A program made the translations under genes and the position numbers. Below are positions 27,252-27,301 of a stretch of DNA of 64,000 nt, one piece after another. Source of the DNA: Escherichia phage ECO111 5-P; sequence record OR844765; one strand, 5' to 3'. Below the pieces are notes generated by a model, which saw only the letters and a program-made list of their open reading frames with translations, did not search any database and had not been told where the DNA came from. The number at the start of each line of letters is the position of its first letter. Within the stretch, counting starts at the first letter, position 1.

Positions 27252-27301
27252 GTTTACTTCTCCAGTAGTTGTGTTATTATAGACCTATCAACTACTGGAG
27301 A
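27252..27301 (+). promoter_or_regulatory. Early promoter embedded in a 13-bp perfect inverted repeat (PeSL-like)
   Basis: -35 GTTTACT 27252-27258; -10 TATTAT 27275-27280; IR arms TCTCCAGTAGTTG 27259-27271 and CAACTACTGGAGA 27289-27301; downstream arm contains the SD for ATG 27307. Confidence 0.6.

Follow-up and report, generated by a model that had tools for sequence, protein, structure and literature searches.

Hairpins that bury a ribosome-binding site and carry an internal late or middle promoter are established in phage T4, where they are found at e, soc, 49, and I-TevI (PMC3014915; PMC2330249). In these systems, as also in I-TevII, I-TevIII, and mobE of Aeh1, the Shine-Dalgarno sequence (SD) and/or the AUG is paired in upstream transcripts, and a promoter just before or within the hairpin gives a translated mRNA without the 5′ arm. 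The promoter is late (TATAAATA) or middle, and the arrangement serves to prevent early synthesis of late proteins. Promoter early stem-loop (PeSL) cassettes, described in RB49/phi1, PST/T4, and nt-1/KVP40, place a strong early promoter and a stem-loop between an AT-rich region, which holds the stop codon of the preceding gene, and an SD with its ATG, and their stem-loops have been interpreted as terminators or attenuators and as recombination sites (Arbiol 2010; Comeau 2014). Such cassettes are repeated within genomes and lie in hyperplastic regions beside indels that distinguish close relatives, and recombination between them yields mini-circles. In this study, an element related to both systems is described at positions 27252-27309 of a 64,000-nucleotide (nt) stretch of DNA, referred to as the window, from Escherichia phage ECO111 5-P (sequence record OR844765). 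It consists of an early promoter whose spacer (arm 1) is the reverse complement of the 5′ untranslated region (UTR) and SD (arm 2) of the gene that it drives, which encodes a protein of 105 amino acids (aa).

The element has two of the features of the T4 hairpins, namely the pairing of the SD in upstream RNA, as predicted by folding, and a proximal promoter giving RNA without the 5′ arm, as judged from the predicted transcription start (+1). Neither a late TATAAATA sequence nor a TGCTT (MotA) box is present within the element, and the late or middle promoter of the T4 systems is therefore lacking. In contrast to them, the promoter is of the early, sigma-70 type and provides the 5′ arm from its own spacer, and the predicted effect is reversed, translation being limited to the earliest transcripts. 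On the basis of the folding predictions and the comparisons given below, we consider it probable that the element acts in promoter-coupled translational insulation, in the manner of the hairpins at e, soc, 49, and I-TevI but with an early promoter. This mechanism, which the initial annotation had suggested, is the best-supported explanation, and it generalizes to a class of which T4 also has members; the element would represent an early-promoter form of a known type of control. A search of the T4 and PeSL literature gave no description of the early-promoter/SD hairpin design; older T4 papers were outside that search, so an earlier account for regB or denV could exist. Valerie and colleagues are said to have described, in 1986, stable stem-loops before ipIII, ipII, denV, and orf61.9, apparently without interpreting them as a switch.

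The initial annotation of this locus had pointed to a resemblance to PeSL cassettes, which holds for composition. The promoter fits the PST/T4 consensus TTTACW-N17-TAYWAT, the cassette lies in a variable region with presence or absence of the adjoining open reading frame (ORF), and it is repeated in the genome and found before unrelated genes. The resemblance does not extend to the stem-loop itself. The published PeSL stem-loops are compact (RB49 has a G-run and a C-run, and PST has AGNA-loop-TCNT just before the promoter), whereas the 27252 element has a 17-nt loop over the −10 and +1 and no following T-run. Five positions of PeSL stem-loops have been described: upstream of the −35, over the −35, in the gap between −35 and −10, over the −10, and in the gap between −10 and +1. 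The 27252 stem-loop overlaps the −10, but its 3′ arm belongs to the transcribed leader and covers the SD, a placement that is outside the five described positions and has no counterpart in any published PeSL subclass. Translation is not a subject of the PeSL papers, and the words "translation" and "ribosome" are found nowhere in the text of Arbiol 2010.

An early promoter inside a perfect inverted repeat

By direct reading of the sequence, the region 27252-27309 has the layout GTTTAC TTCTCCAGTAGTTG TGT TATTAT AGACCTAT CAACTACTGGAGAA CAAA ATG (coordinates in Table 1). The initial annotation had placed the −10 TATTAT in the loop of a 13-bp perfect inverted repeat and the GGAG SD of the gene starting at 27307 in its downstream arm. 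The −10 and the SD are indeed located there and the named arms are present, but the perfect repeat is one pair longer, at 14 bp, and it grows to 19 nt when two mismatches are allowed. Among perfect inverted repeats with loops of 3-40 nt, no other in the 64-kb window is as long. In 200 dinucleotide-preserving shuffles, the mean counts per window were 0.015 for arms of at least 14 bp and 0.06 for arms of at least 13 bp, compared to one and two such repeats, respectively, in the actual sequence.

The spacer between GTTTAC(T) and TATTAT measures 16/17 nt and includes a TGn motif, and GTTTAC is the T4 early consensus at −36 to −31 (Nolan 2006). Sigma-70 geometry places the predicted +1 at A27287, the seventh nucleotide past the −10, which falls within the CTATC conserved around the +1 of T-even early promoters. 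The distance from the end of arm 1 to the −10 is 4 nt, arm 2 starts two bases past A27287, and six bases separate GGAG from the ATG. An Rfam scan of the element returned no family at gathering score, the only match being a generic hairpin one, to mir-2010, at 26 bits versus a gathering score of 66.

Predicted folding of the two RNA forms

Two forms of RNA were compared by folding, as had been proposed in the initial annotation, which expected the SD to be folded into the stem in read-through transcripts and to be freed in transcripts initiated within the loop. The read-through form was represented by four constructs starting 55 to 450 nt upstream, and the accessibility of the ribosome site was expressed as the opening energy, the cost of unpairing the region from SD−2 to AUG+12. 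In the read-through RNA, the 14-bp stem is present in both the minimum free energy and the centroid structures, and the probability that GGAG is unpaired is 0 in every construct. The folding energy of the cassette alone is −21.7 kcal/mol (z = −5.5). RNA initiated at the promoter cannot include arm 1, which lies upstream of the −10. The predicted opening cost is 18.5-21.2 kcal/mol in the read-through RNA versus 3.4-8.0 kcal/mol in RNA starting at 27287. Both expectations are thus borne out by the predicted structures and the predicted +1, and the promoter-coupled translational switch that had been suggested is supported as far as computation and comparison reach.

Translational coupling, in which a ribosome on the upstream ORF would open the stem, was considered separately and rejected by inference from the geometry. 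The distance between the upstream ORF's stop codon and arm 1 is 7 nt in the 27252 element and 11 nt in the related 39984 element described below. With a stop so near arm 1, the footprint of a terminating ribosome would reach about 27260 and melt at most two or three of the 14 pairs.

Selection for pairing among related cassettes

The IMG/VR database was scanned with the pattern GTTTACNTCTCC-N30-36-GGAGA, which fixes only five pairs and finds sequences that are related to one another. Fifty matches with a well-spaced −10 and an ATG formed the promoter-context set, and 43 matches without a −10 box served as chance controls. The stem is extended inward by at least 4 bp in 30 of the 50 promoter-context matches (4-10 bp) and in none of the controls (0-3 bp; Fisher p = 2e-11). 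These 30 long-stem cassettes comprise 16 distinct inner stems and precede genes with at least 10 different N-termini (two sets of which are one residue apart), and orthologues of a single gene (M..S.V.IRRN) bear four different stems. Among 17 cassettes of the same geometry, changes on both sides are found at nine of the 14 pairs. The covariation score is 0.218, compared to 0.079 in shuffles (none of 500 reach the observed value) and at most 0.074 in slid controls, and RNAalifold recovers the stem on its own. Such a change is also seen among phages with 97.5-98.3% identity to the window: the pair 27264/27296 is A-U in the window, G-C in O157 typing phage 3, and A·C in ST0. Judged from this comparison of sequences, the pairing is under selection.

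The position of the stem relative to the promoter was also compared across the class. Arm 1 stops 2-7 nt short of the −10 in every one of the 30 long-stem cassettes, and arm 2 begins at −1 to +8 relative to the predicted +1, with loops of 14-27 nt. The eight bases past the stem are A-rich and T-poor. This is the geometry that a promoter-coupled switch needs, unlike that of an intrinsic terminator.

Other members of the class in the window and in T4

The pattern used for IMG/VR has exactly two matches in the window, at 27252 and 39984, where none would be expected. The sister element at 39984 holds the second-longest perfect repeat of the window and shows the same order of parts (stop, GTTTAC, TTCTCC..., TATTAT, ...GGAGAA, ATG), with a 19-nt loop containing TATTAT at 40007-40012 and with inner stem bases unlike those of the 27252 element. 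It serves the ATG at 40039 of a 174-aa ORF (phrog_1106, function unknown), which is located where T4 has motB. The folding energy of the sister element is −23.9 kcal/mol (z = −7.3), and its opening energy is predicted to be 18.6-19.9 kcal/mol in read-through RNA versus 4.5-7.2 kcal/mol in RNA from its own promoter. A variant form is found at the modB homologue of the window, and T4 modB (AF158101 around 13130-13190) is arranged alike, its 14-bp helix folding at −18 kcal/mol. A weaker member precedes a 60-aa ORF (Table 1).

In T4, the denV cassette is a sequence homologue of the 27252 cassette (84% identity over 63 nt) with the same geometry, although the gene downstream differs. Its 10-bp stem, TCTCCTGTAG/CTACAGGAGA, is shorter than that of the window and has a T-A pair where the window has A-T, a compensatory swap. 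T4 regB also has a spacer-to-SD stem before a different gene; it consists of 15 pairs (one G·U) and three inner pairs past a 1-nt bulge, and folds at −22.4 kcal/mol (z = −5.8). The promoters of denV and regB are documented early promoters, and for denV a primer-extension stop has been seen in vivo (PMC1702504). A census of the T4 early region gave spacer-to-SD hairpins at regB, nrdC.8, the ndd.4 region, denV, modB, e.8, and motB.2, with z = −4 to −5.8 for regB, nrdC.8, modB, and others. When the 52 predicted early promoters of T4 and the window are taken together, the difference in opening energy between the two RNA forms (ddG) is at least 10 kcal/mol in seven, compared to maxima of four in 40 spacer swaps and three in 40 spacer shuffles.

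Several other structures were noted during this survey. In the window, the early promoters with −35 starts at 28565, 40564, 49991, 50500, 5263, and 50761 have short hairpins that straddle the −10 but miss the SD, e.g., TAGGACTAT..ATAGTCCTA, and these impose no read-through penalty on the ribosome site. At 4969-5002, a 12-bp perfect repeat (ACGATAGGAAGA / TCTTCCTATCGT) with a 10-nt loop containing ATG is located after a stop codon and before a GAGGAA-GTG start. An 11-bp perfect repeat (GGCACTATTAC / GTAATAGTGCC) with a 29-nt loop lies at 45708-45758, between genes and before the ATG at 45784, and a weak promoter-like match overlaps it. For T4 ndd.4 (AF158101 166749-166764), the annotated start at 166764 is an ATG within the hairpin 3′ arm CTATGGAGG and has no SD; the real start may be the in-frame ATG 15 nt downstream, which follows a GGAGG SD.

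The same gene in relatives without arm 1

The 124-aa ORF that precedes the element in the window is, together with its promoter, absent in phages Mizar and LF82-7 (comparison record PV714129). In Mizar, the hairpin after gene 41 stands immediately before the promoter that serves the 105-aa gene, and this phage has an identical arm 2 but lacks arm 1. The break in homology with the window falls at 27272, inside the promoter and right after arm 1, which fits the PeSL-type shuffling of cassettes within promoters. The terminator-plus-early-promoter cassettes that serve the 105-aa gene in other T-even phages have the same type of early promoter as the 27252 element and the same 5′ UTR (CAACTACTGGAGAACAAAATG in Mizar). 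They differ in that their insulation would come from a terminator-like hairpin with a UUCG tetraloop before the −35, and their spacer is complementary to the SD region over 4-6 nt at most. The comparison with Mizar also suggests that hairpin and terminator are alternative insulators, and a hint of a general pattern of this kind came from the IMG/VR set anchored on TCTCC, in which a hairpin and an upstream terminator looked mutually exclusive (Mann-Whitney p = 1e-4), although this set is phylogenetically non-independent and most of its terminator-bearing cases are orthologues of one locus. In addition, three IMG/VR loci with homologues of the 105-aa gene have a G+C-rich terminator hairpin with the −35 (CTTACA or TGTACA) in its loop and keep the leader CAACTACTGGAGAA. 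These three loci match the PeSL subclass in which the stem-loop lies over the −35.

Proposed mechanism and points against it

In the mechanism that we propose, polymerase from the element's own promoter would start at about A27287 in the loop and give an mRNA with arm 2 but without arm 1, so that the SD would be open. RNA coming from P26819, the early promoter of the 124-aa ORF, or passing the gene-41 hairpin would carry both arms and form the 14-bp hairpin, with the SD buried. The 105-aa gene would then remain untranslated in read-through RNA and be translated only from its own early-promoter transcripts, and the outcome would be an immediate-early pulse of expression. RegB could add a second layer: the exposed SD fits the RegB consensus, so the translatable mRNA might be cut soon after infection, while the hairpin would hide GGAG from RegB in the longer RNAs.

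Several points weigh against this mechanism. For this phage we infer the activity of the promoter and its +1, the upstream read-through, the effect on translation, and the role of RegB. The closest promoter from which read-through would come, P26819, is an early promoter as well, so it is not obvious that the switch would separate early expression from late. In the predicted structures, the short RNA from the element's own promoter is open but not free of structure; with 100 nt of coding sequence, its SD can pair with CCUCC near 27392, about 90 nt into the gene, at an opening cost of 8 kcal/mol. The 105-aa homologues of Mizar, LF82-7, and many IMG/VR phages keep arm 2 without arm 1, indicating that the gene does not require the hairpin. 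The unbiased census of 52 promoters from T4 and the window did not bear out the exclusivity of terminator and hairpin: six of these promoters are preceded by a terminator, and two of the six have a ddG of at least 6 kcal/mol. About 80% of the predicted early promoters of T4 and the window have no such hairpin. Finally, a PeSL stem-loop of RB49 showed measured terminator-like activity (Arbiol et al. 2010), which leaves room for attenuation at the 27252 element.

A wider proposal, to which we give somewhat less than an even chance, is that this design forms a general layer of T-even early control, of which no formal description was found in the literature searched. About one fifth to one seventh of the early promoters would encode, in the spacer or the −10 region, the strand that masks the ribosome-binding site of their own gene, so that each of these genes (regB, modB, denV, nrdC.8, and accessory ORFs) would be translated only from its own promoter. 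Together with RegB, this would give a short, self-limiting pulse, and small accessory genes would become portable modules that bring their own insulation to any site where recombination places them and need no terminator.

Alternative explanations

An intrinsic (Rho-independent) terminator can be rejected by sequence criteria: the loop has 17 nt, no T-run follows the stem, and the site is not called by the terminator scan. A less canonical alternative is a PeSL-type attenuator or RNA 3′-end element, which would stop or pause polymerases from upstream or stabilize the 3′ end of the upstream mRNA, with the SD drawn into the stem by the small intergenic space. A PeSL stem-loop of RB49 is reported to reduce a lacZ transcriptional fusion downstream of it to the same extent as rrnB T1 (Arbiol 2010). 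The anchored IMG/VR cassettes that follow a clear intrinsic terminator mostly have no long stem, and conversely, just as Mizar has a terminator-like hairpin and no arm 1 while the window has arm 1 and no such hairpin before this promoter. However, the exclusivity pattern is not seen in the unbiased census. The next 8 nt past the stem, ACAAAATG, contain one T, which excludes a canonical terminator, and in 29 of the 30 long-stem cassettes these eight positions hold three T or fewer and are A-rich instead. The loops of 14-27 nt are far over the 3-8 nt of intrinsic terminators. Moreover, the 3′ arm is always over the SD and the predicted +1 is always in the loop, neither of which a terminator needs. 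We therefore regard the attenuator as unlikely. A somewhat smaller probability is given to the idea that the stem is mainly an RNase shield, keeping RegB away from GGAG and other RNases away from the A-rich leader, so that long RNAs carrying dmd and the genes downstream survive and silencing of the 105-aa gene is a side effect. No sequence of the window other than GGAGAACAAAA at the SD matches the consensus published for strong RegB/S1 sites, GGAGRAYARAA (PMC3014915; PMC1702504), and this site could possibly be sensitive to RegB. According to reviews, RNA secondary structure protects from RegB, and 16 RegB-resistant GGAG sites of T4 lie in stable structures. The hairpin design also recurs at T4 regB, the SD of which is itself targeted by RegB. 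On the other hand, T4 denV has the hairpin, yet its SD is resistant to RegB through the 3′ sequence and not through structure; cleaved T4 sites nearly exclude C in the 7 nt past GGAG, and the site at 27297 has C at position 7; and the modB-type variant hides an AUG and not a GGAG. Protection from RNases is, in any case, compatible with promoter-coupled translational insulation and does not exclude it.

The remaining alternatives do not invoke a function in RNA. A DNA-level role as a recombination hot spot (PeSL shuffling, mini-circles), a cruciform, or an operator at which a dimeric protein shuts the early promoter appears very improbable, even though exchanges within such cassettes are documented in the PeSL papers. 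Near-identical cassettes stand before unrelated genes, as the comparison of T4 denV with the 105-aa gene shows, a cassette query matches 818 places in 265 phage records, and the window-Mizar break lies within the promoter just past arm 1. Recombination, however, requires sequence common to the cassettes and not self-complementarity, and the shuffling of cassettes can coexist with a function in RNA. A loop of 17 nt is unfavorable to cruciform extrusion. The stems vary between cassettes while the pairing is kept, which argues for a folded nucleic acid and not for a sequence-specific protein site. Least probable by far, in our estimate, is that the complementarity arose by chance or hitch-hiking, as a by-product of the consensus sequences of early promoters and SDs. 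It is true that CTATCAAC, which forms part of arm 2, belongs to the stretch conserved around +1 in T-even early promoters, that spacers rich in pyrimidines are found repeatedly in this group, and that spacer swaps still yield about six promoters with a ddG of at least 6 kcal/mol. Nevertheless, the shuffle expectation for a repeat of this length is only 0.015 per window, stem extensions of at least 4 bp are absent from all 43 chance matches, and compensatory changes are seen at several pairs, also between near-identical phages. The number of promoters with a ddG of at least 10 kcal/mol is above that of all 80 randomizations.

Gene neighborhood and upstream transcription

The window comes from a T-even phage. 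Its closest match is Shigella phage JK45 (99% identity), and the other close relatives are mostly filed under Mosigvirus. The early region around the element reads, all on the + strand, uvsX, 40, 41, the 124-aa ORF, the 105-aa ORF, and dmd. In T4, gene 41 is directly followed by dmd with neither small ORF between them, so the 124-aa and 105-aa ORFs can be regarded as accessory genes in a variable spot. The 105-, 124-, and 174-aa proteins have no match in Pfam, NCBIfam, PADLOC, or PDB sequences and the only families to which they belong are PHROGs without an assigned function. The 105-aa ORF ends within the start of dmd (ATGA, 27621-27624), and the antitoxin-like Dmd may be translated in partial coupling with the 105-aa gene, though dmd has its own GAGGA.

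Table 1. Positions of the 27252 element, of related elements, and of neighboring features in the window
Feature	Coordinates	Strand	Details
T4-type −35 GTTTAC	27252..27257	+	As sigma-70 hexamer: TTTACT 27253-27258
Arm 1 TTCTCCAGTAGTTG	27258..27271	+	Fills the promoter spacer; 5′ end TTCTCC is anti-SD
Loop, 17 nt	27272..27288	+	TGn 27272-27274; −10 TATTAT 27275-27280; predicted +1 A27287
Arm 2 CAACTACTGGAGAA	27289..27302	+	5′ UTR of promoter-initiated RNA; SD GGAG 27297-27300
Candidate RegB site GGAGAACAAAA	27297..27307	+	Sole window match, either strand, to GGAGRAYARAA
105-aa gene downstream of the element	27307..27624	+	phrog_2110, end-to-end match; function unknown
124-aa ORF	26877..27251	+	phrog_10668, function unknown; stop TAA 27249-27251 abuts the −35
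Early promoter cassette P26819	26818..26879	+	GTTTAC, 17-nt spacer, TATGAT; drives the 124-aa ORF
Terminator-like hairpin AAAGGAGAC-uucg-GUCUCCUUU	26792..26813	+	Just 3′ of gene 41
Sister element	39984..40041	+	GTTTAC; arms TTCTCCTCTGGTT 39990-40002 / AACCAGAGGAGAA 40022-40034, 13 bp perfect
modB-homologue variant	33931..33988	+	−10 region UAUGAUAGG pairs with SD-AUG spacer and AUG CUAUCAUG
Weaker member before 60-aa ORF	3835..3893	+	Spacer TCCTC pairs with SD GAGGA; inner 6-bp helix

The terminator scan of the + strand lists no site between the hairpin after gene 41 and 27392, and read-through into the element is therefore plausible. It is expected to come from P26819 and from anything that passes the gene-41 hairpin, including transcripts from a middle-promoter-like site at 23120 before uvsX, the only middle-like match upstream of the element. 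The spacer of P26819 has a weak anti-SD, TTCCTCT, against AGAGGAA, with a ddG of only 4.1-4.5 kcal/mol. If the proposed mechanism holds, the 105-aa and 174-aa ORFs would be probable immediate-early genes with short leaders.

Implications

If the proposed mechanism is correct, the tightly packed early genes of T-even phages would get individual windows of expression despite transcription that passes through them during much of the infection, which would be relevant to genes whose products are likely harmful in excess, such as the RegB nuclease and the ModB ADP-ribosyltransferase. Direct predictions would follow for start sites, RegB sensitivity, and the timing of translation, and they would extend to T4 itself at regB and denV. 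The design would be modular, at about 55 nt and with a −10 in the loop that can be changed without touching the stem, and it would thus be attractive as a synthetic promoter-coupled translation insulator. Moreover, the stem-loops by which early promoters are accompanied in the variable parts of these genomes would have a functional role beyond recombination.

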